Of a stretch of 64,000 nt of DNA, positions 20-34,329 are shown piece by piece. The notes beneath the pieces were generated by a model that saw nothing but the letters and a program-made list of their open reading frames with translations, had not been told where the DNA came from and ran no database searches. This stretch comes from Candidatus Harrisonbacteria bacterium (GTDB taxonomy: Bacteria > Patescibacteriota > Minisyncoccia > UBA6257 > WO2-44-18): positions 9,298 through 73,297 of the forward strand of contig JACOXP010000006.1 in assembly GCA_016182295.1 (NCBI GenBank). Direction: 5' to 3'. Positions within the stretch are counted from its first letter, which is position 1, and every line of letters starts with the position of its first letter. The position numbers and the translations under genes were made by a program.

Positions 20-1120
20 ATGATCGTCGGATCATTTGGAGCTTCGATCTTGGCAGGATTGGGAGGAGAGAGAATTCTTGCGCGGGTTAAGGAAAAAGTT
101 AAAATTTCTGACCGAAAATGGTTGTTGATCGTTGCTCTTGTGATAATCTCAATCGTTATTGATTACAGAATCGTGTGGCAAAAAAAGTTTGCCATAGAAA
201 GTCCCAAAGCCGAGTTTTTGATTAACAATTCTTCGCCCAAACAATTAAAAGAATTAATTCAAACAAGAGAAGCGGGAAGAGTTCTTTCCGTTTTGCCCGA
301 TGACAGCGTGTCGGTTTTTTATTGGGCCTTAACAGGACAGGGTCCACCGAGAGACGCTGATTTGAAAGCAAAAATTGACGCGGCTTATCTTCACCCCAAT
401 GATCAGTTGTTTTATGGAATAGAGACGATTGAATTGACCGATAATTTGCCGCTTCGCATGGGTCGTTATCTCTCTCTTGTCGGGGCAAGAATTTCTGGGG
501 GCGATTATGGCGAGAGTAATTTGATAAAATATCCGGGAATGCCAATAGATCGGCTGTCTTTACTGAAGCAACGATCCAGTCTGCTTAATTTTCTCGGCGT
601 GCGTTACCTGCTTTCCGGTTTTGATTTGCGTGAAGTTGGATTCGATTATCAGAACCTTGGAAGAGTTCGGGTCGAAGGAGTGAAAGAAGCGGGTTACGCT
701 TTTGGTGTAAATGTTTATGAAAATACCGGCGCCAAACCTCTGGCTTATTTTTCTAAAATCACCGATTTTACTCAGAACGCGGACCAATCTTACGACACTT
801 TTAAAGCGAATGATTTTCGGGGAGTTTTTGTTGAATGCGCAGATTGCGGCAGTATTACCGAAGCTGGCGGCAAAATAGAAATTTTGGAAAAGACGAACGG
901 ACGAGCGATTTTACATTCCGAGTCCGATGGAGTTAGATTTCTGATTTTTTCTCAAAATTATATTCCCGGTTGGGGCGCTTGGATTGATAGCGTAGAAACA
1001 GAAATTTTTAGAGTGAACGCCGCTTTTATGGGAATTTTTGTACCCACCGGCGAGCATAAAATTAGATTCGATTTCAGATATAGCGAGCTTTTAAACCCAA
1101 AATTTTATTTTAATGAATAA
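20..1120 (+). CDS. C-terminal part of a membrane protein, YfhO-like GT-C candidate; may extend upstream of the window
   Basis: ORF starts 19 nt from the window edge. An N-terminal TM helix is followed by a large soluble domain whose C-terminus (NYIPGWGAWIDS...HKIRFDF) resembles YfhO-type membrane glycosyltransferase tails. A GT2 gene follows immediately. Confidence 0.4.
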   Translation: MIVGSFGASILAGLGGERILARVKEKVKISDRKWLLIVALVIISIVIDYRIVWQKKFAIESPKAEFLINNSSPKQLKELIQTREAGRVLSVLPDDSVSVFYWALTGQGPPRDADLKAKIDAAYLHPNDQLFYGIETIELTDNLPLRMGRYLSLVGARISGGDYGESNLIKYPGMPIDRLSLLKQRSSLLNFLGVRYLLSGFDLREVGFDYQNLGRVRVEGVKEAGYAFGVNVYENTGAKPLAYFSKITDFTQNADQSYDTFKANDFRGVFVECADCGSITEAGGKIEILEKTNGRAILHSESDGVRFLIFSQNYIPGWGAWIDSVETEIFRVNAAFMGIFVPTGEHKIRFDFRYSELLNPKFYFNE

Positions 1121-1838
1121 ACATTCCATCACTGTTCTTATTTCAGCGTTTAACGAAGAGCAGACGATCGCGGAAGCTATTTTGAAAACTGATGAAGCGT
1201 TGAGAAAGCATGTGATTGATTATGAGATCATTGTTTTTGATGATGGTAGCCGCGATGCTACCGGGAAAATAGCCGAGGACTTGGCTAAGAATAATAATCG
1301 GCTTAGAGTGGTGCGCAATAAAACCAATAAGAATCTTGGTTATAACTTGAGAATGGGCGTGTCTTTAGCTGGCAAAGAATATTGTATGGCTTTTGTTAAT
1401 GCCGACAGCTATCCGCTGGAAGAATCATTTCGCCAGTTTTTTTCAGTTTATGGCGAGAAAGATTTTGTATTAGGTTACTCCGTTAATTATGGAGACCGTC
1501 CTTGGCTGCGAAGGTTCCTCTCCTGGTTGTTTGTGAAAATTATGAATTTTTTGTTTGGTTTTAGGATTAAATATTATAACGGCCCCGTTATTATTAAAAC
1601 CGCATTATGGCGGACGGTGCCGATGACTATCGAAAGTTTCGCCTACATGGCTGAAGTAACCGCGACTCTTTTAAAAAGGGGCATAAAATATGACGAAGCG
1701 CAGATATTTTATATGCCGGAGCGTAAAGGCTTGAATATTTCGGTCTTGCGGCGTAATATTTGGGGTGTGGCTAAAGCGATTGCTTTAATGTTCTGGCGTC
1801 TGAATATAAAGCGTCAGCTTTACGTAAAACCAAAGTAG
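1113..1838 (+). CDS. Family 2 glycosyltransferase (GT-A fold)
   Basis: N-terminal VLISAFNEE...FDDGSRDATG is the classic GT2 nucleotide-sugar binding / DxD region. Start overlaps the upstream ORF stop. Confidence 0.8.
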   Translation: MNKHSITVLISAFNEEQTIAEAILKTDEALRKHVIDYEIIVFDDGSRDATGKIAEDLAKNNNRLRVVRNKTNKNLGYNLRMGVSLAGKEYCMAFVNADSYPLEESFRQFFSVYGEKDFVLGYSVNYGDRPWLRRFLSWLFVKIMNFLFGFRIKYYNGPVIIKTALWRTVPMTIESFAYMAEVTATLLKRGIKYDEAQIFYMPERKGLNISVLRRNIWGVAKAIALMFWRLNIKRQLYVKPK

Positions 1839-1854
1839 TCTACGGATTTCATTT

Positions 1855-2739: not shown

Positions 2740-2743
2740 AATT

Positions 2744-3700
2744 ATGCCAATAGCCACGCCAGTTTTGATTACTGGAGCCAGCGGTTTCGTTGGCGCTAAT
2801 TTGTTGCGGAGATTGGTAAATAATGGATTGGAGAAAAAAACCAACATTATTTTAAGAAAGAACTCCGACCCCTGGAGGATAAAAGATGTTTTAAAGAAAG
2901 CGCCTACCCACATCGTTGACTTGCGAAACGAAGAGGCCACCAGGGCATTGTTAAAAAAAATTAAACCCAAAACAATTTTTCATCTAGCCACTCACGGCGC
3001 TTACCCGCGCCAGCAATTTGAAGAAAAAGAAATAATGGAAACCAATATTACCTGCGCTTTTAATTTGATGAATAGCGCCGCGCGGACCGGCGTTAAATCG
3101 TTCATCAACACTGGAACTTCTTCAGAATACGGAATTAATAAAATGGCCATGCGCGAACAGGATCGTTTAAGTCCCGTTACCGCTTACGGCGCGAGTAAGG
3201 CCTGGGCCACGCTTTATGGAAATTATTTGGCCAATGACAAAAAATTCCCCGTAACTACATTGCGACTTTTTGGCGTGTACGGATATTACGAACCCCGCGG
3301 CAGGTTGATACCGAATATCATATTATCTTTTTTAGAAAATTCTCGACCAAAACTGACTAATCCGAAATTTATTCGAGATTTTGTTTTTATTGAAGATGTC
3401 GTTGACGCGTACATTATGGCCGCTGAAAGGAACATAGCCGGTTCTATTTTAAATGTAGGATCGGGAAGAAAAACGTCGCTTCAGGAGGTTTTTACTGTTA
3501 TAAAAGAAATTATGAACAGCGACGTTCGGCCAATTTTAGAGAAATCGAAAACCGGCATACCTGATATAAATAGGCGCGTTGCCGATGTGCAATTGGCTAA
3601 AAAGACTTTAAAATGGAAACCAAAGACGAATTTGCGCGATGGCTTGCGAAAGACCGTTAATTGGTTTAAAGATAACTTAGATTTATATGAACATCATTAA
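2744..3700 (+). CDS. NAD-dependent sugar epimerase/dehydratase (SDR family)
   Basis: VLITGASGFVGANLLRRL glycine-rich NAD motif; YGASK catalytic YxxxK; length typical of extended SDR sugar epimerases. Confidence 0.8.
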   Translation: MPIATPVLITGASGFVGANLLRRLVNNGLEKKTNIILRKNSDPWRIKDVLKKAPTHIVDLRNEEATRALLKKIKPKTIFHLATHGAYPRQQFEEKEIMETNITCAFNLMNSAARTGVKSFINTGTSSEYGINKMAMREQDRLSPVTAYGASKAWATLYGNYLANDKKFPVTTLRLFGVYGYYEPRGRLIPNIILSFLENSRPKLTNPKFIRDFVFIEDVVDAYIMAAERNIAGSILNVGSGRKTSLQEVFTVIKEIMNSDVRPILEKSKTGIPDINRRVADVQLAKKTLKWKPKTNLRDGLRKTVNWFKDNLDLYEHH

Positions 3701-4496
3701 GCTTAAAGAAATAGCTAAACAGATAAGACGCGACATTGTTACGATGACTGGAACAGCCCGCGTGGCTCATTCTGGTAGCGCTCTTTCGGCGGTTGACGCG
3801 CTTACGGCGCTCTATTTCAACTTTATGAAACTGAACCCGAAAAAACCAAATTGGCCGGGTCGGGACCGGTTTATTCTAAGCAAGGGCCACGCGGCCACGG
3901 CCTTATATGCCGCTTTGGCCAATCGGGGATTTTTTAAAAAAGAGAAATTAAAAACTTTCGCCCAAAACGGCAGTCATTTGACCTGCCATCCCAGTATTCA
4001 AAATGTGCCCGGGGTTGAGGCCACTACCGGCGCGCTGGGACACGGACTTTCAATTGGCGTTGGCATGGCTTTGGCGGGTAAGCGGGATAATAATAAACAC
4101 AATATTTACGTAATGATTTCCGACGGTGAATGCGATGAAGGTTCTGTTTGGGAGGCGGTGCTTTTTGCCGGCCATCACAAATTAAATAATCTTACGATTA
4201 TTGTTGATTACAATAAAATTCAGAGTTTCGGTCGAACCGCGGAAGTTTTGGATTTAGAGCCGCTAACCGAAAAATTCAAAGCTTTTAATTGGTGGACTAA
4301 GGAAGTTGACGGGCATAATTTAGGCGAACTTCTGTCAGTTTTAAAAGAAGCGAAAAAAATTAAAAACCAGCCGCAATGCTTAATCGCCCATACCGTAAAG
4401 GGGAAAGGTGTTTCTTTTATGGAGGATAGATTAGAATGGCATTATTGGTCGCCCAGCGGCGATTTGTTAAAAAAGGCGTTGGAGGAGCTTGCTTAA
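3687..4496 (+). CDS. Transketolase, N-terminal (thiamine-diphosphate binding) subunit
   Basis: SKGHAATALYAALA, HLTCHPS, GALGHGLSIGVGMA motifs of the TPP-binding half of split transketolases. Confidence 0.85.
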   Translation: MNIIKLKEIAKQIRRDIVTMTGTARVAHSGSALSAVDALTALYFNFMKLNPKKPNWPGRDRFILSKGHAATALYAALANRGFFKKEKLKTFAQNGSHLTCHPSIQNVPGVEATTGALGHGLSIGVGMALAGKRDNNKHNIYVMISDGECDEGSVWEAVLFAGHHKLNNLTIIVDYNKIQSFGRTAEVLDLEPLTEKFKAFNWWTKEVDGHNLGELLSVLKEAKKIKNQPQCLIAHTVKGKGVSFMEDRLEWHYWSPSGDLLKKALEELA

Positions 4497-4504
4497 AAAT
4501 TGAC

Positions 4505-5329
4505 ATGGAAAAATTTGATCCAATAAAAAATTTCAAAGAAGAAGAACAGGGAACTTTTTGGGACGAATATTCTAAAAATTTTATTTCGATTGAAGCGGCG
4601 CAAAGCACAAAATCTCTTTTAAGAGGTGAAATTAGATTGTGCGGAGATTTCTTAAGATCATCCGATCGATCAAACAAAGGAAAAATTTTGAAGTTGGATT
4701 TATGGAACGAAGCTCATCACACCGCGATTCTTACCTACATTCACCATTTTTACGACGAAGTTCATGCTATTGATATATCGCCGGACGTTGTTCGACAGGC
4801 GCTGAAAAAATTGGAAGAGAAAAATATAAAAGTTAAAGCGGTTATCGGCGATATGCGAAAGATGCCCTATCCGGACAATTCTTTTGACTATGTATACACG
4901 ATGGGCACCATTGAGCATATTCCGAGGCCACAGGACGCCATGGAAGAAATATTCAGAGTGCTGAAGCCGGGTGGGCGGGCGGTAATCGGTGTTCCCAATA
5001 AATATGAATGGTTTGGAAAATCTTTAATTTTGGACTTTTTTGCTCTTACCGGCATCAAGGAAGACGGCTACGAACATAGCTACGGTTGGCGGCAATTCAC
5101 TCGTGAGCTTGAAGATTCTGGATTGAGAGTTTTGCGCAAAACCGGCGCTTACTTTATGCCCTGGTTTATCCGGGCCGCCGATTGGTTCTTAGCTCAACGT
5201 TTGCCGAAAGCGGCAATCGTTTTATGGCCTTTCATAAAATTCTCCGACTATTTAAGCAATTCCAACTTCTTCCTTAAGCACGGCAGTGTTGTCGTGGCGG
5301 TTGTAGAGAAACCCCACCATGCGAGATAG
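4505..5329 (+). CDS. Class I SAM-dependent methyltransferase
   Basis: ILKLDLWNEAHHT...VLKPGGRAVIGVP (Methyltransf_11-like motifs I and post-I). Start chosen at MEKFD just after the transketolase stop; the tabulated longer ORF overlaps upstream. Confidence 0.7.
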   Translation: MEKFDPIKNFKEEEQGTFWDEYSKNFISIEAAQSTKSLLRGEIRLCGDFLRSSDRSNKGKILKLDLWNEAHHTAILTYIHHFYDEVHAIDISPDVVRQALKKLEEKNIKVKAVIGDMRKMPYPDNSFDYVYTMGTIEHIPRPQDAMEEIFRVLKPGGRAVIGVPNKYEWFGKSLILDFFALTGIKEDGYEHSYGWRQFTRELEDSGLRVLRKTGAYFMPWFIRAADWFLAQRLPKAAIVLWPFIKFSDYLSNSNFFLKHGSVVVAVVEKPHHAR

Positions 5330-6626
5330 CCAAGAAATAAAAAAAATTGCCGATCAGTATGGCACCCCTACCTTTATTGCTTGGAAAAACGTCATTATTG
5401 AGAATGTCAGGAGATTTCGGGAAGTTCTATGCCAATATCGAGGCGGTTCAACCTTGTGTTATTCGGCCAAGACCAATCCCCAGGTGGCAATTTTAAAAAT
5501 GATGGCCGAACAGGGAATATCCGCCGCCGTCTGTTCTGTTTTGGATACAACCGCTGCGTTCAGAGCGGGATTTTCTGGAGAAAGAATGATCTACGTCGGA
5601 TTAGTTAAAACGGATGAGGGTTTGGAGATCGCCGTTAAAAATAATTTTCGAATAATTAACGTTGAGTCTTATGACGAAGTTACGCGTTTGGCAAAAATTG
5701 CCGAGAAGCACAACAAAAAAGTTCCAGTGGGTATTCGACTTTCCTTTCCGTCCAAAACAGGCATTAAATCTCTATTGGGAGTCACGTATGACCGTTTTGG
5801 GGCAAGCGTTAAAAGTGGAGAAGCGCGGTCAATAGCCGAATTTATTGTTAAAAATCCCCATTTAGTTCTCGAGGGACTTCATTGCCATACCGGATCCAAC
5901 CAAACAAACGAAAAAAACTATCTGATAGGTATTAATCACTTGGTTGATTTCATGAGGTATTTAAAAGAAAAGCACAATGTTTCGATATCGATTTTGAACA
6001 TCGGCGGCGGAATAGGCGTCCCGACCATCAGGGCTTATTCGTTGGTAAATCTTGGCGTGAATTTTCTAAAAAACATGATTGGCCGGCCACTTCGCCACGT
6101 CAGTAACCTCCAATTTAGTCTTCCGGCAATGATGAAAAGAATTATCGATCATTTACATCAGACCTTGGATCGTCACAATCTTTCCCATCCCCATCTTATG
6201 ATGGAACCAGGAAGAGCGCTCGTCGGAGATGGGATAGATCTGGTAACGCGGATAGTCAACGAAAAAAGGACGGAGATTCGCAAGTGGTACATGATCGATG
6301 GGGGCACCAATCTCCTTCCCGCCCTTACCCTATTTTCAGAATCCCATGATATAACGGTGATAACTGATAATCGGGATTCCACTATGGAAAAACTTTCCGT
6401 CGCGGGGCCGCTTTTATACTCGGCTGACATAGTGGCGACCAACAGATTTTTACCAAAAGCGAGGATTGGCGATCTGATTGTGGTGCATGACGTTGGCGCG
6501 TATTGCGGCAGTCAGTCAAACCAGTTTCTTTACCCGAGAGCGGCAACCATATTGGTAAGTGGAAATACTTCAACCGTTATACAAAAACGGGAGTCGGTTG
6601 AAGACGTATTATCAAGGGATTTATGA
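5319..6626 (+). CDS. PLP-dependent decarboxylase, Orn/DAP/Arg decarboxylase family (fold type III)
   Basis: YSAKTNP (PLP-lysine region), HCHTGSNQ and a C-terminal beta-domain resembling diaminopimelate/ornithine decarboxylases. Confidence 0.75.
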   Translation: MRDSQEIKKIADQYGTPTFIAWKNVIIENVRRFREVLCQYRGGSTLCYSAKTNPQVAILKMMAEQGISAAVCSVLDTTAAFRAGFSGERMIYVGLVKTDEGLEIAVKNNFRIINVESYDEVTRLAKIAEKHNKKVPVGIRLSFPSKTGIKSLLGVTYDRFGASVKSGEARSIAEFIVKNPHLVLEGLHCHTGSNQTNEKNYLIGINHLVDFMRYLKEKHNVSISILNIGGGIGVPTIRAYSLVNLGVNFLKNMIGRPLRHVSNLQFSLPAMMKRIIDHLHQTLDRHNLSHPHLMMEPGRALVGDGIDLVTRIVNEKRTEIRKWYMIDGGTNLLPALTLFSESHDITVITDNRDSTMEKLSVAGPLLYSADIVATNRFLPKARIGDLIVVHDVGAYCGSQSNQFLYPRAATILVSGNTSTVIQKRESVEDVLSRDL

Positions 6627-10602: not shown

Positions 10603-10607
10603 AAGAT

Positions 10608-13571: not shown

Positions 13572-13575
13572 AATT

Positions 13576-14016: not shown

Positions 14017-14019
14017 TTT

Positions 14020-18603: not shown

Positions 18604-19409
18604 GTAAATTAGAATCAGACATTTCACTGGTTATTATTACCGCCAATGCATTGAGGCATAAATTTGTAACCAATCAGTTAATTAAAGATTTTCAGGTTAA
18701 AGGAGTTATTTCCGAAATCAAGCGTCCATTAAGGCAAGGCGACACGGTGGAGGAAAATGAGATTATTGCTAAGCACAGCCGTGAGCGTGATGAAAAAGAA
18801 ATCGAATATTTTGGCGCTGAGAAAGACTTTAATCTTCCGACAGAGAAAATAATGAGGGTAGACTATGAGGAAGCTAATAGCCAAAAAGTATACGACTGGA
18901 TTAAAAAATTGAATCCCAATTACGTAGTTCTCTTTGGCAGTGGCATCGTGCGCGATCCGCTTTTAAGTGAATATAAGGGACGAATCATCAATATGCACCT
19001 TGGCCTCTCTCCCTATTATCGTGGTTCGGCGACCACCTTTTGGCCATTTGTGGAAAAAGAACCGGAATGTATCGGCGTTACCGTCCATTTAGCGGTTTTG
19101 AAAGTAGACGCGGGATCAATTTTGGGGCAATCTCGGCCGGAAATTAACCCTGACGACGGCGCCCATGATATAGGCTACAGAAATATTATCGCCGGGGCCG
19201 AACTTCTAACGAGATGTATCCGCGAATACAGCGCTGGAAAAATTCAACCGAAACCCCAGCGTCTCGATATCGGAAAGGTTTTTAAACACAAAGATTTCAA
19301 CGCGCAATCGGTGTTAAAGATGAAAGAAAATTTTTCAAACGGGATGATTGAGCTTTATTTAGAAAATAAACCCCAGCGTGACGCTCAATACCCGATTATT
19401 GAGGCATGA
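18600..19409 (+). CDS. Formyltransferase-domain protein (sugar N-formyltransferase candidate)
   Basis: VVLFGSGIVRDPLL...IINMHLGLSPYYRGSATTFW matches the N10-formyl-THF formyltransferase core (Fmt/PurN/ArnA-N-like). Confidence 0.7.
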   Translation: MSKLESDISLVIITANALRHKFVTNQLIKDFQVKGVISEIKRPLRQGDTVEENEIIAKHSRERDEKEIEYFGAEKDFNLPTEKIMRVDYEEANSQKVYDWIKKLNPNYVVLFGSGIVRDPLLSEYKGRIINMHLGLSPYYRGSATTFWPFVEKEPECIGVTVHLAVLKVDAGSILGQSRPEINPDDGAHDIGYRNIIAGAELLTRCIREYSAGKIQPKPQRLDIGKVFKHKDFNAQSVLKMKENFSNGMIELYLENKPQRDAQYPIIEA

Positions 19410-20737
19410 AGACGATCTTTCTTTTTGTCCCGCCGAGTCTGATTTCGGATCTTTTACGCACCCCGTATTTGAAGCATGCGGCAGAAAAATTTCGGGTTAT
19501 AGTTTTTACTAGAACAGTTGATCAAGAAACCGGCGAGCGGGAATATCTTAAATCGCCAAACGTGATTTACCATCGTTGGAAAACCCATAACTCCAAATTG
19601 CTGGGAAGGTTCAAGTTTTTCCGAATAGACGGAATCCACCAATTTAATTATTTGAGGGGAGTCGCCCAGTATTATCAAAAAAACATTTTTCTTTCCGATC
19701 GCCGGGCTCGACTAATTAGATTTTTGACCAGGCCTTTTGGAAAAATTTTGACAACCGATTTTTTTACCACGGTTGAAAAATTTTTAATAAAAGTGCCGAG
19801 GGAATTTCGAGACGCCGTAAAAAAATATCAACCATCCGCGGTAGCCGTTTCCACCCCGGGAATGACTGTTTTCGAAGCCGAAGCGATCTTGATGGCCAAA
19901 CGATTGGGGGTGCCGACCGCGGCCGTTAATTTCAATTGGGATAATCTTACTTTGCAGAAAGCCCACTTAATGCGGAGATGTGATTTCTTGCTGGTTTGGA
20001 ACGATATCATCAAGGAACAGGCGATCAAAATTCACAAATATCATCCGAATAAAGTGATGGCAACAGGCGTAATGCGTTTTGATCACTACTTTCAGAAAGG
20101 AAAAGAAGAAATTAGCCGTGATGAGTTTTTGAAAACCAAAGGTTTGAATCCTAATTTGAAAACCATTCTAATTATTACCGAAAGCAAGAATTACTCATTT
20201 CAGTTAAAATGGTTTCGCAAATTGTTCGAACTCCGCGAGAGAGGGAGTATTCCCTATGCCAATGTTTTTATTAGAATTCATCCCCACGATACGCCAGAAG
20301 CTTATAAAGAGTTCTCTGGGCTACCGGATGTTAATGTGGAATTAGCCGGGCAACCGATGGTTAATCAAGCTGACCGAATTGAAATGCGCGTTTCCGATTT
20401 AGAAAATCAAAAACTGACTATTAAACACACGGATATTAATTTCAACTATTGCTCTACAATGTCCTTGGAATCGATGATATTTGACAAACCGGTAGTGATT
20501 TTTTATGAACCAGGTCATTACGACACCGAAAAGACTCATTTCAAACCCATTCTGGACGTTGGTTCTGCAAAACTGGTTAGAAGCCCAGAAGAGCTTGCTT
20601 TAACTATCAAACAATACTTGACTAATCCGGGGTTAGATAGAGAAAAACGCAAGCTCGTCCTTGATCGCTATATGCCATTTAGGGATGGTCAATCCCCAAA
20701 ACGCAGCGTCGAAGCGCTGGCAAAAATACTAAAATAA
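19406..20737 (+). CDS. GT-B-like transferase with HP motif (paralog 2)
   Basis: TPGMTVFEAEAILMAKRLGVPTAAVNFNWDNLT, RIHPHD, CSTMSLESMIFDKP; paralog of 10608-11966. Confidence 0.6.
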   Translation: MKTIFLFVPPSLISDLLRTPYLKHAAEKFRVIVFTRTVDQETGEREYLKSPNVIYHRWKTHNSKLLGRFKFFRIDGIHQFNYLRGVAQYYQKNIFLSDRRARLIRFLTRPFGKILTTDFFTTVEKFLIKVPREFRDAVKKYQPSAVAVSTPGMTVFEAEAILMAKRLGVPTAAVNFNWDNLTLQKAHLMRRCDFLLVWNDIIKEQAIKIHKYHPNKVMATGVMRFDHYFQKGKEEISRDEFLKTKGLNPNLKTILIITESKNYSFQLKWFRKLFELRERGSIPYANVFIRIHPHDTPEAYKEFSGLPDVNVELAGQPMVNQADRIEMRVSDLENQKLTIKHTDINFNYCSTMSLESMIFDKPVVIFYEPGHYDTEKTHFKPILDVGSAKLVRSPEELALTIKQYLTNPGLDREKRKLVLDRYMPFRDGQSPKRSVEALAKILK

Positions 20738-20742: not shown

Positions 20743-22626
20743 GTGCTGATTTACAGTAGAAAAATTTTTGTTCTTGTTGTGCTGGCAGTGGCGGTTGGAT
20801 TGTTTTATACACTACCGCCGTTTTTGGTTTGGCGGGATTTGGCGAGCAATGGCGAACCATTTCTGTTAGCAAACCTCCAATCCTACAAAGATGAAATGAC
20901 CGTGTATTTGCCAAAAGCGAGAGAAGTGTACGATGGTCATTTTCCTCCAACAGACGTTTATTCCGGAGAGACTGGGCCATCAGTTCTTGGTATCGTGCCG
21001 AGCGTTTTATTCGCGCCATTTCTTTTTCTTTTTGATGGCGATTTGAATTGGGCTTATTTAGCCGCGCAGTTTTTCTTTTCCGGATTGATATTTTTGATTT
21101 TTTTCTGGCTGGGAAATTTATTTTTCAAATCAAGAAGATGGGCGCTAACCATTTCTTTATTGGGCGTTTTAACCCCGCTGGCAACCATTTATTATGGGTG
21201 GAGCTTGAGCGGAACGGCAAGTATTTTGAAAACAATTGTTAAACAATTTGTACCATTGGTAAGAACCGAAATTCATAAATTGTATTTAGTAAGAATTGAC
21301 GATCCAATGCTAACTTTGCCGGTTTATCTTTTAGCAATTGGCGGTCTTTATACATTTTGGATGTCGCCTAAGCGGCGGACGGCTGTTTTTGCCGCTCTGC
21401 CAATGGGATTTCTTTTTTATACCTATTTTCATTATTGGATTTTGTGGTTGATAATAATCGGAGTTTTAACTTTATTTGGTTTGTATTCAATATGGCGAAC
21501 CCCTAGTTGGTTTAACAAAGATAAGTTAATTTATTTCTTTGTTTTGTTGGTGATTATTGGATTGATGGCCGTTCCTTACGCGATGAATTACCTAGAAACT
21601 TTGCAAATACTCGGAGGCCAGGATCATGGATTGAGATTGGGCGCTACTTACGGCCGGGATGTCTGGCCGATACAGCAATTTGCCTTCAGGCATTATATTG
21701 CGTATTTATTTTTAGTCGGCGCTGTTTACTGGCTTTATTTTCGAGGCGGAGATCAAAGGCGGGGGATATTTTTTTTAAGCTGGCTTTTAGCTTTCTTTGT
21801 ATTCTGGAACATTCAGACAATAACTGGATTTATGGTGGAACAAGTTCTGGCGCCAAGAGCCATAGCCCCTCTAATGTATGTGCTTCTATTCGTCTTACTT
21901 TTCGACCTGATAAAAAAAATCTCAATTCGGAAACCCTTATGGGGCCATTTAACGATTTGGTTTCTAACAGCTGTAATTGTTTTAATTCCACTCAAGAAAG
22001 CCGTCAATGTTTTAGCGATTATAAACCCGAGTTCGGAAACCAAGGACTATTACCGTTTTTCCGGAGAATTAATTGACTCCTGGAAATGGATTAACGCCAA
22101 TTTGAGAAAAGAACCGAAAATCGTTGCCTCTTCATTAGTGACGTCTTTTTATCTTACTACTTATACCTCAGCCCGCCCCTACGTAGCTACTGGATTTGTT
22201 TCTGCTCTGCCAACAATAGAGCTGGAACAAAGATTTCTAAACGCGAATAAATTATTCCAAGTCCCAGAAGATGTTTTTCGTCATCGGATTATTGGCGATC
22301 TGATTCTTAAATGTGGAGAAAATTGCCCGCCGGACGCTGTGTTTAATTTGGACAAAACTCGTCGTTTTCTCTTTGTCGCGGATTCAGCCAAAGTTTCTAA
22401 AATGGTTGGCCGCGAGAGCAAAACAATACTTGAATACGCCGATTCTGTAACGGCGTCATATAAGGCATTAAATTTGAATTGGGATGATATTGATGCGGAA
22501 TACGTTTATCTGGGGCCGCTAGAACGAATGTTTAGTAGCCCTAATTTTCTTGCCGTGCCTAATCTAAGTTTGATATATCAAAATCCTGAAGTAGAAATCT
22601 ACAAAATCGACAAAATTGATTTTTGA
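20743..22626 (+). CDS. Large polytopic membrane protein, GT-C-fold glycosyltransferase candidate (paralog 1)
   Basis: About 12 predicted TM helices; first extracytoplasmic loop carries KDE..YLPKAREVYDGHFPPTD, conserved in the paralog at 32416-34329; C-terminal soluble domain. Confidence 0.5.
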   Translation: MLIYSRKIFVLVVLAVAVGLFYTLPPFLVWRDLASNGEPFLLANLQSYKDEMTVYLPKAREVYDGHFPPTDVYSGETGPSVLGIVPSVLFAPFLFLFDGDLNWAYLAAQFFFSGLIFLIFFWLGNLFFKSRRWALTISLLGVLTPLATIYYGWSLSGTASILKTIVKQFVPLVRTEIHKLYLVRIDDPMLTLPVYLLAIGGLYTFWMSPKRRTAVFAALPMGFLFYTYFHYWILWLIIIGVLTLFGLYSIWRTPSWFNKDKLIYFFVLLVIIGLMAVPYAMNYLETLQILGGQDHGLRLGATYGRDVWPIQQFAFRHYIAYLFLVGAVYWLYFRGGDQRRGIFFLSWLLAFFVFWNIQTITGFMVEQVLAPRAIAPLMYVLLFVLLFDLIKKISIRKPLWGHLTIWFLTAVIVLIPLKKAVNVLAIINPSSETKDYYRFSGELIDSWKWINANLRKEPKIVASSLVTSFYLTTYTSARPYVATGFVSALPTIELEQRFLNANKLFQVPEDVFRHRIIGDLILKCGENCPPDAVFNLDKTRRFLFVADSAKVSKMVGRESKTILEYADSVTASYKALNLNWDDIDAEYVYLGPLERMFSSPNFLAVPNLSLIYQNPEVEIYKIDKIDF

Positions 22627-23606
22627 GCTATAATTTTCCCATGCGCATTCTAGTTACTGGAGGGGCCGGGTTTATAGGCAGTCATTTAGTTGAACGTTTA
22701 TCCAGAAATGGAGACCGAGTTATTGTTTTAGACGATTTTTCAACCGCCAGCCGGGAAGTAGTTAACTGGGTCGAAAAATTACCCGGCGTAACTATTGTTA
22801 AAGGATCAGTTTTGGACAAATCGCTCTTGACAAGAACAATATCCGGCTGCCAACAAATTTATCATTTGGCCGCGGCAGTTGGGGTTAAATTGGTTGTAGA
22901 AAAACCACTGCAGTCTTTTTTAACAAATGTTTCCGGTTCTCATAATGTTTTAGAACTGGCAGATAAGAAAAAAATCCCAGTTTTATTAACTTCTTCATCC
23001 GAAGTTTATGGAAAAAGCGACAAATTGCCGTTTCGAGAAAATGAAGACCGAGTTTACGGATCTGTTTACAATGAGCGTTGGGGATATGCATTATCCAAAA
23101 CATCGGATGAATTTTTAGCCCTAGCGTACTGGAGAGAACGGGGGTTACCAGTTGTGGTGGTCCGCCTTTTCAATACAGTCGGTCCTCGTCAGGTTGGAAC
23201 CTACGGAATGGTGGTACCTCGGCTAGTTCAACAAGGATTGCGAAATGATGATCTTACTATTTATGGCGATGGTCTTCAGATCAGATCCTTTAGTTATGTA
23301 GGCGATGTGGTTGACGGAATGCTAAAACTTTTAAATTCTAAAAAATCACATGGAGAAATTTTTAATCTTGGATCACCGGAACCGATAACTATTCTCGATT
23401 TAGCCAAAAAAATCAAAGTATTGATGAAGAGTCAGTCTAAGTTAAGAATGATTCCTTATCGGAAAGTTTACGGAGAAACTTTTGAAGATATGCGAGTAAG
23501 AGTCCCCGATATTTCTAAAGCTAAACGAATTGTTGGGTACAAACCTAAATTTACCCTTGATGACACTCTCAAAGCCGTTATCGATTACTACAGAAAATCT
23601 TTATGA
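22623..23606 (+). CDS. NAD-dependent epimerase/dehydratase, UDP-glucuronate decarboxylase (UXS/ArnA-C)-like
   Basis: ILVTGGAGFIGSHLVERL; SSSEVYG; YALSK catalytic pair; overall resemblance to UDP-xylose synthase type SDRs. Confidence 0.7.
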   Translation: MSYNFPMRILVTGGAGFIGSHLVERLSRNGDRVIVLDDFSTASREVVNWVEKLPGVTIVKGSVLDKSLLTRTISGCQQIYHLAAAVGVKLVVEKPLQSFLTNVSGSHNVLELADKKKIPVLLTSSSEVYGKSDKLPFRENEDRVYGSVYNERWGYALSKTSDEFLALAYWRERGLPVVVVRLFNTVGPRQVGTYGMVVPRLVQQGLRNDDLTIYGDGLQIRSFSYVGDVVDGMLKLLNSKKSHGEIFNLGSPEPITILDLAKKIKVLMKSQSKLRMIPYRKVYGETFEDMRVRVPDISKAKRIVGYKPKFTLDDTLKAVIDYYRKSL

Positions 23607-24357: not shown

Positions 24358-25743
24358 TTGAAGAATTTTTGGCTTTCTAGGAGTTTTAAGATAATAAGTA
24401 TGAAAACCGTATTTATAGCCGTTTTTCAAGGAACGGAATTTCGGAATATTATCCGGACAGACATTTATAAAGAATTGATCAATCAGCCGAATGTCCGCTT
24501 GGTTCTATTTACTGACAATGAAGTTAAGCGTGATTATTTCCAATCACAATTTAACGCTCCAAACGTTATTTATGAAATAGCCAATGATTATCGGCCGCAC
24601 TGGTCGGCGCCGATTTTTGGTTTTCTAAAATATAATCTGATCAAAACCGGCACTTTAGACATGAAACGCCGCAGAAAATTGGAACAAAATGGCAACTATT
24701 TTAATTATTATTTCCGATGGCTTACCAATCGCCTGTTGGCTAATCGATTGTCAAGAATTATAACTCGCTGGGCGGCGTTTCATTTAGTGCGTGACGATTT
24801 TTTTGCCTCTTATTACGATAAATACCAGCCACAAATGGTTCTATTAGCTCATCTTTTCAGCGATATCGAGACGTCAATGCTAAGAGAAGCAAAACGGCGA
24901 AAAATAATTTCTGTTGGATTGATAAACTCCTGGGACAAGTTAACTTCCAGAAATATGCTTTTGCTTTTGCCGGACAAAATGCTGGTCCATAATCGGATAG
25001 TGAAAAATGAAGCTATTCGTTTGGCTGATATGTCGAAAAAGGATATAACAATAGTCGGCATACCGCATTTCGACCATCATTTTAAAACGCCAAGGTCTTC
25101 CAAAAAGGAATTTGCTAAACGATTTGGCTTGGATCCTAACAAGCGATACGTAGTTTTTTGTCCGGAGGGAAAGACCTATATTGATTCTGATGGGCAAATG
25201 GCCAGCTTAATTGATGAAATGATTGCTAGCGGAGAATTGCCGAATGACCTCCAACTAATAATCCGCTTGCCGCCAAATGATATCATTGATATTTATCCAT
25301 ACAAAACAAAAGTGGTCATTCAGCAAGCTGGCAAGCGTTTTTCCAAGAAACGCGGAGTAGATTGGGATATGGACGAAGAAGATTTTCGGTTATTGGCTGA
25401 TACAATGCGTCATGCTTCGGTGATAATTCTTTATGCCTCAACGGTAGCAATGGACGCGGCGGTTTTCAATAAACCTCTTATCAGCGTGAATATTAAATTT
25501 CCAAATTATCCTTCCACTGATTGGGTTTATGAATATGAACATTGCGGCACTCTTTTGCGAACCGGTGGTTTGGATTACGTAAGGACACGCGCCGATTTGG
25601 CTAATTCTATCAAGCGATATCTTGAAAATCCTCAATTCAATGACGACGGTCGGAGCAGGATTCGAGAGGAGCAGTGTCATTATTTAGACGGCAGGTCAGG
25701 GAAACGTGTGGCCGAATACATCCTCGATTTGTTAAACGTTTAA
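24358..25743 (+). CDS. GT-B-like transferase with HP motif (paralog 3)
   Basis: MKTVFIAVF N-terminus (an alternative start at 24400 matches the paralog N-termini better) and C-terminal ASTVAMDAAVFNKP block; the HP position is degenerate (LPPND). Confidence 0.55.
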   Translation: MKNFWLSRSFKIISMKTVFIAVFQGTEFRNIIRTDIYKELINQPNVRLVLFTDNEVKRDYFQSQFNAPNVIYEIANDYRPHWSAPIFGFLKYNLIKTGTLDMKRRRKLEQNGNYFNYYFRWLTNRLLANRLSRIITRWAAFHLVRDDFFASYYDKYQPQMVLLAHLFSDIETSMLREAKRRKIISVGLINSWDKLTSRNMLLLLPDKMLVHNRIVKNEAIRLADMSKKDITIVGIPHFDHHFKTPRSSKKEFAKRFGLDPNKRYVVFCPEGKTYIDSDGQMASLIDEMIASGELPNDLQLIIRLPPNDIIDIYPYKTKVVIQQAGKRFSKKRGVDWDMDEEDFRLLADTMRHASVIILYASTVAMDAAVFNKPLISVNIKFPNYPSTDWVYEYEHCGTLLRTGGLDYVRTRADLANSIKRYLENPQFNDDGRSRIREEQCHYLDGRSGKRVAEYILDLLNV

Positions 25744-25746
25744 TAA

Positions 25747-28901: not shown

Positions 28902-30071
28902 ATGATGAAATCAAAACCCAAACGAAAGATTTGTTTTCCAATAATGAGTCGTATCCACTACGCTCGACAGCGTGGTCTGTTAGATTTGATTAAAAAGACT
29001 CCGGGCCTCGATCTGCAGTTGATAGTTGGCGGTTCAGTTCTTTTGGATAAGTACGGAGAAAGATTTTTGCCGGCTATAAAGTCCGCCGGTTTTCCAGTGC
29101 ACGAAATTCTTTATAATGTTATCGACGGCGGCAGTCATGTTTCAATGGCAAAGACCGCCGGATTAACCGCTCTAGAAGTGTCCAATTCTTTTCACAAACT
29201 CAATCCCGATATCGTTTTGATTCGTGGAGACCGCTTCGAGCAATTAGCAACCGCGATGGTCGCCGCTTATTTGAATAAAACAGTGGCGCATATTGAAGGC
29301 GGAGACGTTACCGGAACGATTGATGAAAGCGTTCGTCACGCTATTACCAAGTTATCTCATATTCATTTTGTTACCAATGAAGATTCTCGCAGACGTGTTG
29401 TCCAAATGGGGGAAAACCCCGATTTGGTTTTTAATGTCGGATCTCTTGATATTGAATTCGCAGCCAATGTTGATAAAAAAAATAACGGTCAAATAGTAAA
29501 TCAAACCGGCGTTGGAACGGTAATAAACACCCGCAAGCCATTTTTGATGGTTATGCAGCACCCGGTAACCACGGAAAAGAATAATCGTAAAAATATGGAA
29601 ATTACTTTAAAAGCCATAGATCGTTTAAACATGCCCACCGTGGTTTTTTGGCCGAACAGCGACGCTGGCACCAATGAAGTCGCGAAAGCTATCAGAGTGT
29701 ACCGAGAAGAAGGGAGGCTTAAGAATAAAAAAATTCGGTTTGTTACCGATCTTCTGCCGGAAGGTTTTATTGCTTTATTGCGTAGATCAAGCGCGCTTAT
29801 TGGAAACTCTTCGGCGGGCATCAAGGAATCTTCTTATTTAGGCGTTCCGGTGGTTAATATAGGCACAAGACAAAGCAACCGATTACGGGGGGGGAACGTT
29901 ATAGACGTTGACTATGACACTCGGAAAATAGAAAATGCCATTAGAAAACAATTGCGGCACGGGGCATATCCTAAGTCCGATATTTATTACAAACCCGACA
30001 CCAGTAAAAAAATTGTCGATATATTAAAAAAAGTCGATCTTTACAGCCAAAAGAAATTTCATGAAATCTAA
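28902..30071 (+). CDS. UDP-N-acetylglucosamine 2-epimerase, hydrolysing type (NeuC/LegG-like)
   Basis: LIRGDRFE ... AHIEGGDVTG ... HIHF match the NeuC-type hydrolysing 2-epimerase motifs (GDRxE, HIEGG). Confidence 0.75.
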   Translation: MMKSKPKRKICFPIMSRIHYARQRGLLDLIKKTPGLDLQLIVGGSVLLDKYGERFLPAIKSAGFPVHEILYNVIDGGSHVSMAKTAGLTALEVSNSFHKLNPDIVLIRGDRFEQLATAMVAAYLNKTVAHIEGGDVTGTIDESVRHAITKLSHIHFVTNEDSRRRVVQMGENPDLVFNVGSLDIEFAANVDKKNNGQIVNQTGVGTVINTRKPFLMVMQHPVTTEKNNRKNMEITLKAIDRLNMPTVVFWPNSDAGTNEVAKAIRVYREEGRLKNKKIRFVTDLLPEGFIALLRRSSALIGNSSAGIKESSYLGVPVVNIGTRQSNRLRGGNVIDVDYDTRKIENAIRKQLRHGAYPKSDIYYKPDTSKKIVDILKKVDLYSQKKFHEI

Positions 30072-30792
30072 AGTTTTAGGAGTAATTACGGCTCGAGGCG
30101 GTTCCAAAGGAATCCCCGGGAAAAATATCAAACCATTATTGGGCAAGCCGCTTATTGCTTATACAATTGAAGCGGCAAAAAATTCTGGAGTGATCGATCG
30201 GCTAATCTTATCGACGGACGATCCGGAAATCGCAAGGGTGGCTAAAGAATACGGTTGCGAAGTGCCGTTTATGCGTCCGGCGGAGTTGGCTCAAGACAAG
30301 ACTCCGCATTTACCGGTAATGCAGCATGCCGTTCAGTGGCTGAAAGAAAACGAAAACTATTATCCGGATTATGTCATGATTTTTCAACCGACTTCTCCGC
30401 TTCGGCAAGCGTTTCATGTCCGGGAAGCGGTGGAGTTGATCCAGAAAACCGGAGCCGATTCGGTATTGAGCGTCTCCGAAATACCTAATCATTTTACGCC
30501 GCACAAGGCGATGGTAGTGGATGATCGGGGAATGCTTTCTCTTTTTAGCGGAAACCCAATTCGCAAGAGAACCGCCCGTCGCCAAGACCTCGCGAAAACT
30601 TATTGGAGTGTTGGCTCAATCTACCTTTTTAAAACAGATTTGCTTTTTCATTCGGAAGATCCTAATTTTTTTGGCGACACGGTCGCCCGCTGCGAAATTA
30701 ATCCAAAATACGTAGTTGACATCGACGTTCCCGAAGACTGGGAAGAGGCCGAGCGGGCTATGAAAAAATTACAAAATGAGCAGTCACGTTAA
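30061..30792 (+). CDS. CMP-nonulosonate (acylneuraminate) cytidylyltransferase, NeuA/LegF/PseF-like
   Basis: VLGVITARGGSKGIPGKNIKPLLGKPLIAYTI is the hallmark N-terminal motif of CMP-NeuAc/CMP-Kdo synthetases. Confidence 0.85.
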   Translation: MKSKVLGVITARGGSKGIPGKNIKPLLGKPLIAYTIEAAKNSGVIDRLILSTDDPEIARVAKEYGCEVPFMRPAELAQDKTPHLPVMQHAVQWLKENENYYPDYVMIFQPTSPLRQAFHVREAVELIQKTGADSVLSVSEIPNHFTPHKAMVVDDRGMLSLFSGNPIRKRTARRQDLAKTYWSVGSIYLFKTDLLFHSEDPNFFGDTVARCEINPKYVVDIDVPEDWEEAERAMKKLQNEQSR

Positions 30793-31564: not shown

Positions 31565-31583
31565 TTTTGCTATAATCAAGCCC

Positions 31584-32411: not shown

Positions 32412-32415
32412 ATTT

Positions 32416-34329
32416 ATGACAATTTCCAAAAAGGAAATTCTTTTGGTAACGATTTTATCACTGGTGGTGGGATCGCTTTTTATCGCTCCGCCGCTCGCCA
32501 TTAAATATCACTATGAGCAAGATGGAAATGAATTCGTTTTAGCTCAATTGAAAACTTACCGCGATGAAGTCTACAGCTATCTTCCCCGCGCGCGGGAAGT
32601 TTACGACGGCCGTTTTCCGCCTACAGATTTGTCTTTGGAGGGTTATAAAGCGACTCCCTTTGGATCCGTGCCGCCGCTTTTGTTGGGAGGGTTAATTTAT
32701 GTTTTTCGGGGAGATATGAACGCCGCTTATCTTGCCGCTCAGTTTATCTTTTCGGCGATTATTTTCGCGCTATTATATCTCACCGGCCGATATTTGTTTA
32801 ATTCTTGGCGATGGGCGTTGTTTTTTTCCGCGGTTGGAGCGTTGACTCCCGCGTTGATCAACGTTTTTAATTTTGATTTTAAGGGAGATTTAAAAATTTT
32901 ATTCGATTATACCGTAAAACAGTTTGTACCCTTCGTGAGAACGCAAATTGATAAATTGCGTTTGGCTAGAATTGACGAGCCCCTGCTGACCTATCCGATA
33001 TATTGGGCGGCCATTTTAACCTTTTTAATTTTTTGGAAAAAACCTTCGGTCAAAATGGCATTATCAACGGCCGTATTGTCCGGTTTGCTAGTTTATACCT
33101 ACGTTCATCATTGGATTTATTGGACCATCTTTATAGGTTTGACCTTCCTTTACGCTTTTTGGCGCCGCGGCACGAATCAAAAACTATTTAAAAATTACTG
33201 CGTATTATTGGGATTTTTAGCAATTGTTCTTCTGCCGTTTTTTGTAAACTTTTGGCTGTTTAATCAAAATCCGGGGTCAGTCGACGCTTCTTACAGATTT
33301 ACGGTCTTTGAAACTAGAGAATTGGGTATAGGCCCAAGGCATTATAAGGATTATGTTGCCTATTTAATTTTGGCAATTTTGGTTTGGCTGGCTTTCTTTA
33401 AAAAGCCGAGGAAAATTGACGGAGAGGATTGGTGGCGGCCGAAAGAATGGGGGGTTATTTTCCTGGCATTGATCGGGGCAATTGTCGTTGCCAGAAATAT
33501 CCAGGTCGTTCTTGGAGAAACTATAACTCCCGCAAAATGGGACAATGCTTTTTCTCCAGCTTTTTTTATAATTTTTATCGCCTTAATTTACGATTTTTTT
33601 AAACGTTGGAGCCGGCAGGCGCCGGTAATTGGAAAATGGTCCGGGAGAATTTTGGTTTTACTAAGCGTTTTGGTTTTTGCCAAGTATGCCGTCAATCCGA
33701 TTTCCATTTATTCAAATCCCAACCCAGAAACCTTGGCTTATTATAAATTTCCCAACGAAGTGGTGGATTCCTGGCGGTGGATTAATAATAATCTGGAAAG
33801 CGAGCCGAAAATTTTAACCCCTTCCTACGTTACTTCTATGTATTTGATGAGCTACACTTCGGCTCGACCGTTCGTTCCAAGAGGACTTTTGTCGCTCGCT
33901 TCAAATTTTGAAATTGAGGAAAGATTCCTAATTGCCAATAAGTTTTTTCAAGTGCCGCCAGCCGATTTGAGAATGCAGCTAGCCGGTGAATTTGATCGGG
34001 GTTGCTCGGCATTTGATTGTTTTCCGGACACGGGAATAAACTTAAACAAACCGCTCTTCCAGCTTTATGGGGGGTGGTTCGAGAACCGTAAATTAAAGGA
34101 TTTTTTGAACGATCGTGATCTTACCGAAGCGCGCGATCGGAAGCTTGACGAATTGTTGACGCGGTATAAAAACTTGGAGGCCGATTGGGAGAAAGTGGAT
34201 ATTGATTATATTTATTATGGGCCGTGGGAAAAACAATTGAATGGTGGCAGAACCTTTTGGGGGAATCCCAGTCTGAAGCTTGTTTATGAAAACACCGAGG
34301 TGCAAATCTACAAGTTACTTAATAAGTAA
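32416..34329 (+). CDS. Large polytopic membrane protein, GT-C-fold glycosyltransferase candidate (paralog 2)
   Basis: Start taken at MTISKKEIL after the upstream stop. RDE..YLPRAREVYDGRFPPTD loop and overall topology paralogous to 20743-22626. Confidence 0.5.
   Translation: MTISKKEILLVTILSLVVGSLFIAPPLAIKYHYEQDGNEFVLAQLKTYRDEVYSYLPRAREVYDGRFPPTDLSLEGYKATPFGSVPPLLLGGLIYVFRGDMNAAYLAAQFIFSAIIFALLYLTGRYLFNSWRWALFFSAVGALTPALINVFNFDFKGDLKILFDYTVKQFVPFVRTQIDKLRLARIDEPLLTYPIYWAAILTFLIFWKKPSVKMALSTAVLSGLLVYTYVHHWIYWTIFIGLTFLYAFWRRGTNQKLFKNYCVLLGFLAIVLLPFFVNFWLFNQNPGSVDASYRFTVFETRELGIGPRHYKDYVAYLILAILVWLAFFKKPRKIDGEDWWRPKEWGVIFLALIGAIVVARNIQVVLGETITPAKWDNAFSPAFFIIFIALIYDFFKRWSRQAPVIGKWSGRILVLLSVLVFAKYAVNPISIYSNPNPETLAYYKFPNEVVDSWRWINNNLESEPKILTPSYVTSMYLMSYTSARPFVPRGLLSLASNFEIEERFLIANKFFQVPPADLRMQLAGEFDRGCSAFDCFPDTGINLNKPLFQLYGGWFENRKLKDFLNDRDLTEARDRKLDELLTRYKNLEADWEKVDIDYIYYGPWEKQLNGGRTFWGNPSLKLVYENTEVQIYKLLNK

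Follow-up and report, generated by a model that had tools for sequence, protein, structure and literature searches.

Probable GT-A/GT-C glycosylation modules in a surface-glycopolymer gene cluster of a Harrisonbacteria genome, and a GT-C family outside existing sequence families

Three GT-C/GT2 gene pairs in a Harrisonbacteria contig

We analysed a stretch of 64,000 nucleotides from a Candidatus Harrisonbacteria bacterium (Patescibacteriota; GenBank assembly GCA_016182295.1, contig JACOXP010000006.1, positions 9,298 to 73,297 of the forward strand), hereafter called the window, in which genes for membrane glycosyltransferases of the C fold (GT-C) stand close to genes for glycosyltransferases of family 2 (GT2). 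The window is almost wholly occupied by one co-directional run of genes on the plus strand, with a GC content of about 42%. An earlier note on this DNA, made from the letters alone, had proposed three pairs, each formed by a polytopic GT-C-like membrane protein and an adjacent GT2 enzyme resembling the polyprenyl-phosphate sugar synthases DPM1, GtrB and ArnC. The six open reading frames (ORFs) concerned are all present on the plus strand, but two corrections were needed: the first membrane gene, read as ORF 20-1120, is truncated by the window start, and the members of the second pair are not directly adjacent. The genes of the three pairs and the acidic motif of the two long membrane proteins are listed below (TM, transmembrane; SDR, short-chain dehydrogenase/reductase; NDP, nucleoside diphosphate).

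2..1120, plus strand: YfhO-family GT-C, C-terminal 372 residues, cut by the window start; last TM helix and an extracytoplasmic beta-rich domain
1113..1838, plus strand: GT2a, 241 residues; soluble, no TM helix, 'NAD' in place of DxD
20743..22626, plus strand: GT-C paralog A, 627 residues; 11 predicted TM helices, N-terminus inside, C-terminal domain of about 200 residues outside
20887..20955, plus strand: acidic loop motif of paralog A, residues 49-71, KDEMTVYLPKAREVYDGHFPPTD
22623..23606, plus strand: extended-SDR NDP-sugar epimerase/dehydratase; Pfam Epimerase 182 bits, GDP_Man_Dehyd 182 bits
23603..24349, plus strand: GT2b, 248 residues; DAD motif, one weak C-terminal hydrophobic helix
31584..32411, plus strand: GT2c, 275 residues; DAD motif, two C-terminal TM helices (residues 229-273) as in GtrB and ArnC
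32416..34329, plus strand: GT-C paralog B, 637 residues; same family as paralog A
32560..32628, plus strand: acidic loop motif of paralog B, residues 49-71, RDEVYSYLPRAREVYDGRFPPTD

Direct adjacency of GT-C and GT2 genes holds for the first pair, whose genes overlap by 8 nt (1113 versus 1120), and for the third, whose genes are 4 nt apart (32411/32416) when the ATG at 32416 is taken as the start of paralog B. This start was chosen rather than the upstream TTG at 32359, and the resulting N-terminus aligns with the N-termini of the family. In the second pair, one SDR gene is interposed, the order being GT-C (20743-22626), SDR (22623-23606) and GT2 (23603-24349) with a 4-nt overlap at each junction. 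Pfam scans and a GT2 hidden Markov model run on all ORFs of at least 80 residues found these three GT2 genes only. All three lie within one gene of a GT-C gene, an arrangement that came up by chance with p of about 1e-3 in a crude simulation of random gene orders.

Fold, topology and conserved residues of the GT-C proteins

A full-length alignment of paralogs A and B gives 37% identity (E 4e-130). No Pfam or NCBIfam model matched either of them at E<=0.1, so that the profiles by which the earlier note had hoped to recognise them, PMT_2, YfhO or any other GT-C profile, gave nothing. A profile of their family searched against PDB sequences likewise returned nothing relevant, with one chance match at E 3.8. 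A word-indexed search of 5.8 billion proteins retrieved 22 relatives only, and a HMMER profile search of 1.84 billion cluster representatives retrieved 1,620 at E<=1e-3, 321 of them at E<=1e-30. We then relied on a predicted structure: the AlphaFold2 model of paralog A, built from a 23-sequence alignment, reached a pLDDT of 88.2 and a pTM of 0.90. In a Foldseek search of the PDB its 27 matches at E<=1e-3 were all GT-C structures (probability 1.0, TM-score 0.36-0.48), including the enzymes STT3/PglB/AglB, DPY19, AftA, ArnT and AftD, in agreement with the fold proposed for the long paralogs from their sequence. Transporter structures, a match to which had been named as the outcome that would overturn the proposal, appeared only at E>=0.01, with probability <0.5 and a TM-score of about 0.1. 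As polytopic membrane proteins with the GT-C fold, A and B thus belong to the GT-C superfamily, according to the model, and no existing sequence family covers them.

Neither paralog is a member of the Pfam family YfhO (PF09586). Alignment of the A/B family with relatives of YfhO by hhalign was marginal (probability 40.7%, E 2.9e-4, about 190 columns), which hints at a remote kinship rather than membership. We found no description of the A/B family in the literature on GT-C enzymes in Patescibacteria, on teichoic acid in the candidate phyla radiation (CPR), or on DUF6798. The last of these is a 61-residue Pfam model to which some distant members of the family give weak, sub-threshold matches (P0115, residues 674-702; P0160, 424-443; P0091, 796-817); the matches fall just past the last TM helix, at an S-W-x-W motif, and the window paralogs give none. 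DUF6798 may be a partial model of the C-terminal domain of the A/B family.

From the AlphaFold helices combined with hydropathy, 11 TM helices are predicted for the family, with the N-terminus inside and the C-terminal domain of 200 residues outside. The first external loop (residues 31-103) contains two short helices, which we interpret as lying at the membrane surface; surface-lying short helices are also found in the first external loop of ArnT and PglB. Averaged over 137 full-length members, the six loops predicted as cytoplasmic contain 0.22-0.42 lysines and arginines per residue and the external loops 0.00-0.11, and loop 1 is net negative, with 8.1 aspartates and glutamates versus 5.3 lysines and arginines. 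N-terminal fusions are found in 11 of 167 members: seven to a GT2 domain, one to a GT4/GT1-type glycosyltransferase, two to an S-adenosylmethionine-dependent methyltransferase and one to GtrA. In the ten enzyme fusions the enzyme domain leads into TM1 of the family without any hydrophobic segment in between; in the GtrA fusion, TM1 comes after exactly four other TM helices. The positive-inside rule and the fusions to enzymes needing cytoplasmic substrates, which are independent of each other, both place the acidic loop outside the cytoplasm, as its supposed catalytic role had demanded.

The acidic motif that follows TM1, first noticed as a feature common to the two paralogs, proved to be conserved among 168 members of the family: D50 in 89%, E51 in 60%, E61 in 70%, D64 in 66%, G65 in 93% and D71 in 87%. 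The family therefore has the conserved acidic residues expected of GT-C enzymes in the first extracytoplasmic loop, and D50 and D71 are candidates for catalytic or metal-binding residues. Other residues conserved on the external side are Y226 and Y228 (93 and 97%), an acidic residue at position 294 (97%), R298 (96%), N356 and Q358 (94%) and G362 (99%), and in the C-terminal domain W449 (100%), T475, R497 and E594. From this pattern, the donor and catalytic site is likely to comprise D50 and D71 of loop 1 together with D/E294, R298, N356 and Q358, and the conserved C-terminal domain of about 200 residues, with W449, T475, R497 and E594, probably binds the acceptor.

The first GT-C gene of the window is of a different family. 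Its frame is open from base 2, and what can be seen of the protein is a single TM helix with a soluble domain of some 310 residues; its assignment to GT-C could be upheld, as a YfhO-family protein, but the polytopic character attributed to it is not visible in the window. The fragment scores 25.8 bits against Pfam YfhO, below the gathering score of 28.5 because its N-terminal half is missing. All of its 372 residues align, at 33% identity, with residues 347-723 of P0173 (744 residues, PF09586), and it also matches P0174, named 'YfhO family protein'. Its homolog in one related locus, L021 (729 residues, E 6e-54), scores 49.8 bits against YfhO, above the threshold, and PF09586 is found in 25 of 30 relatives of that homolog. 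On the strength of this clear homology to YfhO members, the gene is read as coding for a YfhO-family GT-C of some 740 residues, which the window enters near residue 347. AlphaFold modelled the fragment (pLDDT 75) with a beta-sandwich at its end, and the fold nearest to this model, though a weak match, was that of the soluble part of the GT-C enzyme AftD. The fragment was also considered as a member of the A/B family and found to be unrelated (hhalign probability 0.1%). A word-indexed homolog search and a metagenome scan with fragment 2-1120 were both empty, and L021, the one related locus, has no GT2 gene beside its YfhO gene.

Candidate donor synthases, gene fusions and neighbourhood

All three GT2 proteins match Pfam Glycos_transf_2 (GT2a with 77.8 bits). 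GT2b and GT2c have what is expected of polyprenyl-phosphate GT2 enzymes, namely a GT-A domain with a DxD motif and dolichyl-phosphate mannose synthase (DPMS), GtrB or ArnC as nearest characterised or solved relatives. Among PDB sequences GT2c matched Pyrococcus DPMS (E 2e-16), ArnC over residues 2-232 and GtrB, while the top of the list for GT2b was held by DPMS 5mlz (E 3.5e-14), ArnC and GtrB; the top matches of the two proteins comprised 5mlz, 9bhc/8vxh/9hwj and 5ekp. GT2c aligned with positions 3-207 of the 213 of the NCBIfam dolichyl-phosphate hexose transferase (108 bits versus a cut-off of 375), and GT2b aligned near full length, below cut-off, with AglJ, ArnC and the same transferase model. 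C-terminal membrane helices are clear in GT2c (two), weak in GT2b (one) and absent from GT2a; soluble GT-A enzymes that work with a separate membrane partner have a precedent (PMC8035078). GT2b and GT2c are therefore candidate polyprenyl-phosphate sugar synthases by sequence comparison and GT2a is the weakest candidate of the three, so that the likeness to DPM1, GtrB and ArnC formerly ascribed to all of them stands for two and is weaker for the third. As the NCBIfam equivalog cut-offs were not reached, sugar specificity is not assignable. The SDR encoded at 22623-23606 matches the NCBIfam models for LegB-like, RmlB, GalE and UDP-xylose-synthase proteins, in each case below cut-off, and SDR homologs occur in 15 of 36 loci that carry the A/B family. 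Translationally coupled between paralog A and GT2b, it probably supplies the nucleotide sugar of the second pair.

These 36 related loci were taken from species-representative genomes. A DPM1-like GT2 gene lies within the fetched flanks in 22 of them, directly adjacent or fused in 8. The fusions bear on the functional pairing of GT2 and GT-C that had been supposed for the window: as Rosetta-stone evidence, seven GT2::GT-C fusions and one GtrA::GT-C fusion among the 167 relatives speak for it. In P0038, a single polypeptide of 822 residues, the N-terminal domain is 55% identical to GT2c and the rest is 53% identical to full-length paralog B; by these alignments it is the fused equivalent of the third pair of the window. 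In the fusion P0007, the GT2 domain is 43% identical to GT2b and the protein is 40% identical to paralog A. P0150 is the fusion of GtrA with the GT-C protein, and a GT2 gene lies three genes upstream in the same operon. The GT2 and GtrA fusions and the gene neighbourhood point indirectly to a sugar donor linked to polyprenyl (di)phosphate for paralogs A and B.

A family gene split into two ORFs was observed in 10 of the 36 loci (L019, L020, L021, L023, L026, L027, L028, L029, L033 and L035; for example L020:5986-7891). The N-terminal piece, of about 150 residues, comprises TM1-TM3 with the acidic loop and ends in '...LTPIALRILNF(D/H)GA*'; the C-terminal piece has about 485 residues, and its ATG overlaps the stop codon of the first. 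The DNA of the junction is conserved ('..TTTGATGGAGCTTAA..'). A sequencing error is unlikely because the same junction recurs in ten assemblies, and the sequences suggest a genuine two-subunit GT-C. Both paralogs of the window are unsplit.

The assemblies that carry the 36 loci are all from Patescibacteria (CPR), except two short contigs binned as Nanoarchaeota; their labels include Minisyncoccia, Parcubacteria, Saccharibacteria, Harrisonbacteria, Yanofskybacteria and Paceibacterota. Two or three family paralogs per genome are often found, and a more distant member is also labelled Patescibacteria. Paralog A and its partners are flanked by genes for TagF-like proteins, and two tandem membrane proteins of the EamA family, in the drug/metabolite transporter (DMT) superfamily, follow the third pair:

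19406..20737, plus strand: TagF-like protein (Glyphos_transf), Pfam 47.4 bits; ends 5 nt upstream of paralog A
24358..25743, plus strand: second TagF-like protein (Glyphos_transf), Pfam 45.2 bits; directly after GT2b
35785..37636, plus strand: two tandem EamA/DMT-superfamily membrane proteins, Pfam EamA 34 and 67.5 bits; two genes after the third pair

A third paralogous TagF-like gene completes this set (10632-11966, 19406-20737 and 24358-25743); its ORF, listed as 10308-11966, overlaps the preceding gene, and the start is probably near 10632. In 23 of the 36 loci a TagF-like homolog is found at most 6 kb away from the family gene, and in 7 it is the direct neighbour; no other kind of neighbour is more frequent. 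The window cluster also encodes NeuC, NeuB, a cytidylyltransferase, SDRs, methyltransferases, two deacetylases, a formyltransferase, an FkbH-like/MaoC/SDR set, an adenylating enzyme with a phosphopantetheinyl transferase, Wzx, a Wzy_C protein with tetratricopeptide repeats (TPR) and a phosphoglycosyl transferase.

A small GtrA-like flippase, for which a search of the surroundings had been advised, was not found in the window: Pfam scans gave no PF04138 match in any hydrophobic ORF, and phmmer with the GtrA domain of P0150 gave no match. The EamA pair was considered as the lipid-sugar flippase and is unsupported in this role, as it co-occurs with the family in 1 of 36 loci (L004), within a block of NeuC, cytidylyltransferase, 2-hydroxyacid dehydrogenase and cupin genes. 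The two EamA proteins are weak flippase candidates and more probably part of a nonulosonic-acid module. Wzx is present in the window as another candidate, with no support from conservation. By analogy with Listeria and L. lactis, where the flippase gene lies away from the GT-A/GT-C pair (PMC8035078), the flippase may be encoded elsewhere.

Several further features of the window were noted. The nonulosonic-acid module (28902-30792, 34353-37636 and 38721-39842) comprises NeuC, which scores above its NCBIfam cut-off, a cytidylyltransferase, NeuB, a 2-hydroxyacid dehydrogenase, a cupin and the two EamA proteins; the order NeuC/cytidylyltransferase/dehydrogenase/cupin/EamA/EamA is the same at L004:7888-13171, directly after the family GT-C. 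The N- and C-terminal parts of a transketolase are encoded by two genes (3687-4496 and 7600-8517), between which (4436-6626) lie genes for a methyltransferase, a pyridoxal-phosphate-dependent decarboxylase and an SDR, a set that suggests that the cluster makes an unusual sugar, either branched or extended in its chain. At 11994-14721, an FkbH-like HAD/GNAT protein is encoded together with a MaoC dehydratase and an SDR, and an adenylating (AMP-binding) enzyme stands next to a 4'-phosphopantetheinyl transferase at 25747-27608, where no obvious carrier-protein gene was noticed; these two sets may serve an acyl or D-alanyl-like decoration pathway. The UDP-glucose dehydrogenase-like ORF 41215-42099 covers positions 73-295 only of the 413 of its model and looks truncated. 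It is preceded by a 403-residue ORF without a Pfam or NCBIfam family, and the region 39869-42099, the most GC-rich of the window (0.49), may be a pseudogene or a rearrangement. The Wzy_C/O-antigen-ligase domain of the 716-residue protein encoded at 42080-44230 is followed by C-terminal TPR repeats, and near this gene lie those for Wzx (44921-46189) and the phosphoglycosyl transferase (46190-47524), both on the minus strand. In the 1066-residue protein encoded at 55904-59104, Pfam matches a lamin-tail domain (LTD) and nothing else; this large protein is probably located at the cell surface. ARAGORN and Rfam detected a single RNA gene in the window, a tRNA-Pro(CGG) at 49788-49859.

Proposed mechanism, alternatives and meaning

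On this basis, we propose with good though not full confidence that the window carries three multi-component transmembrane glycosylation modules of the GT-A/GT-C kind within one large surface-glycopolymer cluster of a Patescibacteria (CPR) bacterium. At the cytoplasmic face, GT2b and GT2c, and less certainly GT2a, would move one sugar from a nucleotide sugar to polyprenyl phosphate, the nucleotide sugar of the second pair being probably made by the interposed SDR. The polyprenyl-phosphate sugar would then be flipped to the outer face, where the GT-C protein (paralog A, paralog B or the product of the YfhO-family gene) would pass the sugar to an acceptor. To judge from the neighbourhood, this acceptor is most likely the polymer made by the same cluster with its TagF-like and Wzx/Wzy-type genes, and the frequency of TagF-like neighbours suggests that it may be teichoic-acid-like. 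Systems built from a GT-A enzyme, a flippase and a GT-C enzyme have been described, and there are precedents for several GT-A/GT-C pairs sharing one flippase (PMC8035078, PMC11127046). From the presence of three pairs we infer, as the earlier note did, several distinct modifications of a surface polymer or glycoprotein.

A number of observations weigh against this proposal. The TM-scores of the GT-C matches found by Foldseek are modest, and the best of these matches are oligosaccharyltransferases (OSTs), whose donors are diphosphate-linked oligosaccharides and not monophosphate-linked monosaccharides. In GT2a, NAD stands where DxD is expected and a TM helix is lacking; the PDB sequences closest to it are chondroitin synthase, 6p61 and GtrB (about 32-35 bits), and DPMS scores 27 bits. 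For none of the three GT2 proteins does an NCBIfam match, ArnC, PpgS and AglJ included, come near the equivalog cut-off. In 14 of the 36 related loci, several of which are short contigs, no GT2 gene lies within the fetched flanks, and the GtrA-type flippase of a Gtr-like system is missing from the window.

The principal rival explanation takes paralogs A and B for OST-like enzymes that transfer a glycan en bloc from polyprenyl diphosphate to a protein (pilin or S-layer) or another acceptor, the GT2 enzymes being ordinary cytoplasmic builders. STT3, PglB and AglB are indeed the top Foldseek matches (E about 2e-6), a conserved soluble domain follows the last TM helix as it does in OSTs, and the phosphoglycosyl transferase, Wzx and the Wzy_C/ligase-like gene of the cluster would make diphosphate-linked glycans. 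The invariant W449 lies about 22 residues past the last TM helix, which we take to be roughly the place of the WWDYG motif of OSTs. However, no WWDYG/WWDxG motif is present in the family, whose pattern there is S-[WYF]-x-W-[LI]-[NDE] with only W449 invariant. DPY19, AftA and ArnT, which use monophosphate-linked monosaccharide donors, match with E-values within about 100-fold of those of the OSTs, and the repeated fusion to GtrA and to GT2 domains of the DPMS/GtrB type is expected for such donors and not for OSTs. We consider en bloc transfer unlikely.

Alternatively, A and B could be extracytoplasmic enzymes that polymerise, ligate or anchor a TagF-type teichoic-acid-like chain. This idea draws on the TagF-like genes, which accompany the family in most of the related loci and flank paralog A in the window. 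It conflicts with the strong fold matches, all of them to glycosyl-transferring GT-C enzymes of the PglB/ArnT kind, with the GT2 and GtrA fusions, which indicate a lipid-monophosphate-sugar donor, and with the Wzy_C/O-antigen-ligase-like protein already encoded at 42080-44230; moreover, we know of no GT-C enzyme that acts as a polyol-phosphate polymerase. Its probability is slightly lower again than that of en bloc transfer. That A and B are transporters or flippases and not enzymes, as polytopic proteins without a family annotation might be, comes close to exclusion, given the fold matches to GT-C at probability 1.0 and to transporters only weakly, and conserved polar residues that lie in external loops and in the soluble C-terminal domain and not in the membrane core.

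The proposed modules can be compared with several known systems. In the CsbB/GtcA/YfhO systems of Bacillus subtilis, Staphylococcus aureus and Listeria (PMC8035078, PMC5836110), a GT2 polyprenyl-phosphate sugar synthase and a multi-spanning GT-C enzyme likewise decorate teichoic acid from the outside, and three GT-A/GT-C pairs per genome occur in B. subtilis and in L. lactis (PMC8035078). The host of the window is probably monoderm too, TagF-like genes are nearby, and the first gene is a YfhO-family gene overlapping a GT2 gene; by contrast, A and B have no Pfam YfhO match and the window has no GtcA/GtrA gene. The GtrA/GtrB/Gtr(type) systems for O-antigen glucosylation of Shigella and Salmonella phages consist of an undecaprenyl-phosphate-glucose synthase, a small flippase and a serotype-specific GT-C enzyme. 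The window shares with them a GT2 gene next to a GT-C gene, GT2b and GT2c have GtrB as one of their nearest solved relatives, and P0150 joins GtrA to the GT-C protein with a GT2 gene in the operon. Unlike the Gtr enzymes, however, A and B belong to another GT-C family, lack a GtrA partner in the window, and are part of a chromosomal biosynthetic cluster rather than a phage cassette.

The ArnC/ArnE-ArnF/ArnT pathway, by which aminoarabinose is added to lipid A, resembles the window in its synthase, since ArnC aligns with residues 2-232 of GT2c, and in its transferase, ArnT being a fold match at E 1.8e-4 with a TM-score of 0.46-0.52; the formyltransferase, the SDR, the two polysaccharide deacetylases and the EamA proteins of the cluster also recall ArnA, ArnD and ArnE/F. 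Yet Pfam scans found no ArnB-like aminotransferase, and the ArnA matches of the SDR and the formyltransferase are far below cut-off and no better than generic ones, and an Arn-pathway reading of the second pair was rejected on these grounds. To our knowledge, Patescibacteria have no lipid A. STT3, PglB and AglB, besides being the best structural matches, are built like A and B, with an N-terminal TM domain, in which the first external loop is acidic, and a soluble domain behind the last TM helix. Paralogs A and B differ from them by lacking the WWDYG motif and any sequence similarity, and by fusions to GT2 and GtrA that imply a monophosphate-linked monosaccharide donor. Finally, in the GT136 pentofuranose systems, too, a synthase of the lipid-linked donor, a small flippase and a GT-C enzyme act once polymerisation is over, and GT136 was itself founded on a GT-C enzyme of no earlier family (PMC11127046). 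In these systems, unlike in the window, the donor synthase is a polyprenyl phosphoribose synthase dependent on phosphoribosyl pyrophosphate and not a GT2 enzyme, and the flippase is SMR/EmrE-like (PMC11127046).

The mechanism proposed here is thus of a known kind, whereas the A/B enzyme family is undescribed in the sources searched; because the mechanism is already known, the finding extends an established paradigm and creates no new one. At least 47 kb of the window is given to surface-glycan synthesis, the three extracytoplasmic glycosylation modules included. A CPR genome measures about 1 Mb, and if this applies here, such a cluster would occupy several percent of it. Patescibacteria are ultrasmall, mostly uncultivated episymbionts whose surface mediates attachment to the host and whose surface chemistry is almost unknown. 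We tentatively suggest, at somewhat less than even chances, that A and B represent a new GT-C family, outside Pfam, NCBIfam and the sequences of solved structures, whose close relatives detected here belong to the CPR (bar the two contigs binned as Nanoarchaeota), with two or three paralogs in very small genomes, in stand-alone form, fused to the donor synthase or GtrA, or split after TM3, and that this family could be the main diversifier of the surface polymer presented to hosts. If this is true, the split form would consist of two subunits, which is unusual for a GT-C.

Although it comprises at least 1,620 sequence clusters, the A/B family has no name in domain databases, and routine annotation enters its members as 'hypothetical membrane protein'. 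Naming it would improve the annotation of many CPR genomes, in which the GT2 and GtrA fusions effectively annotate its function, and would single out genes for study in those few Saccharibacteria that are amenable to genetics.

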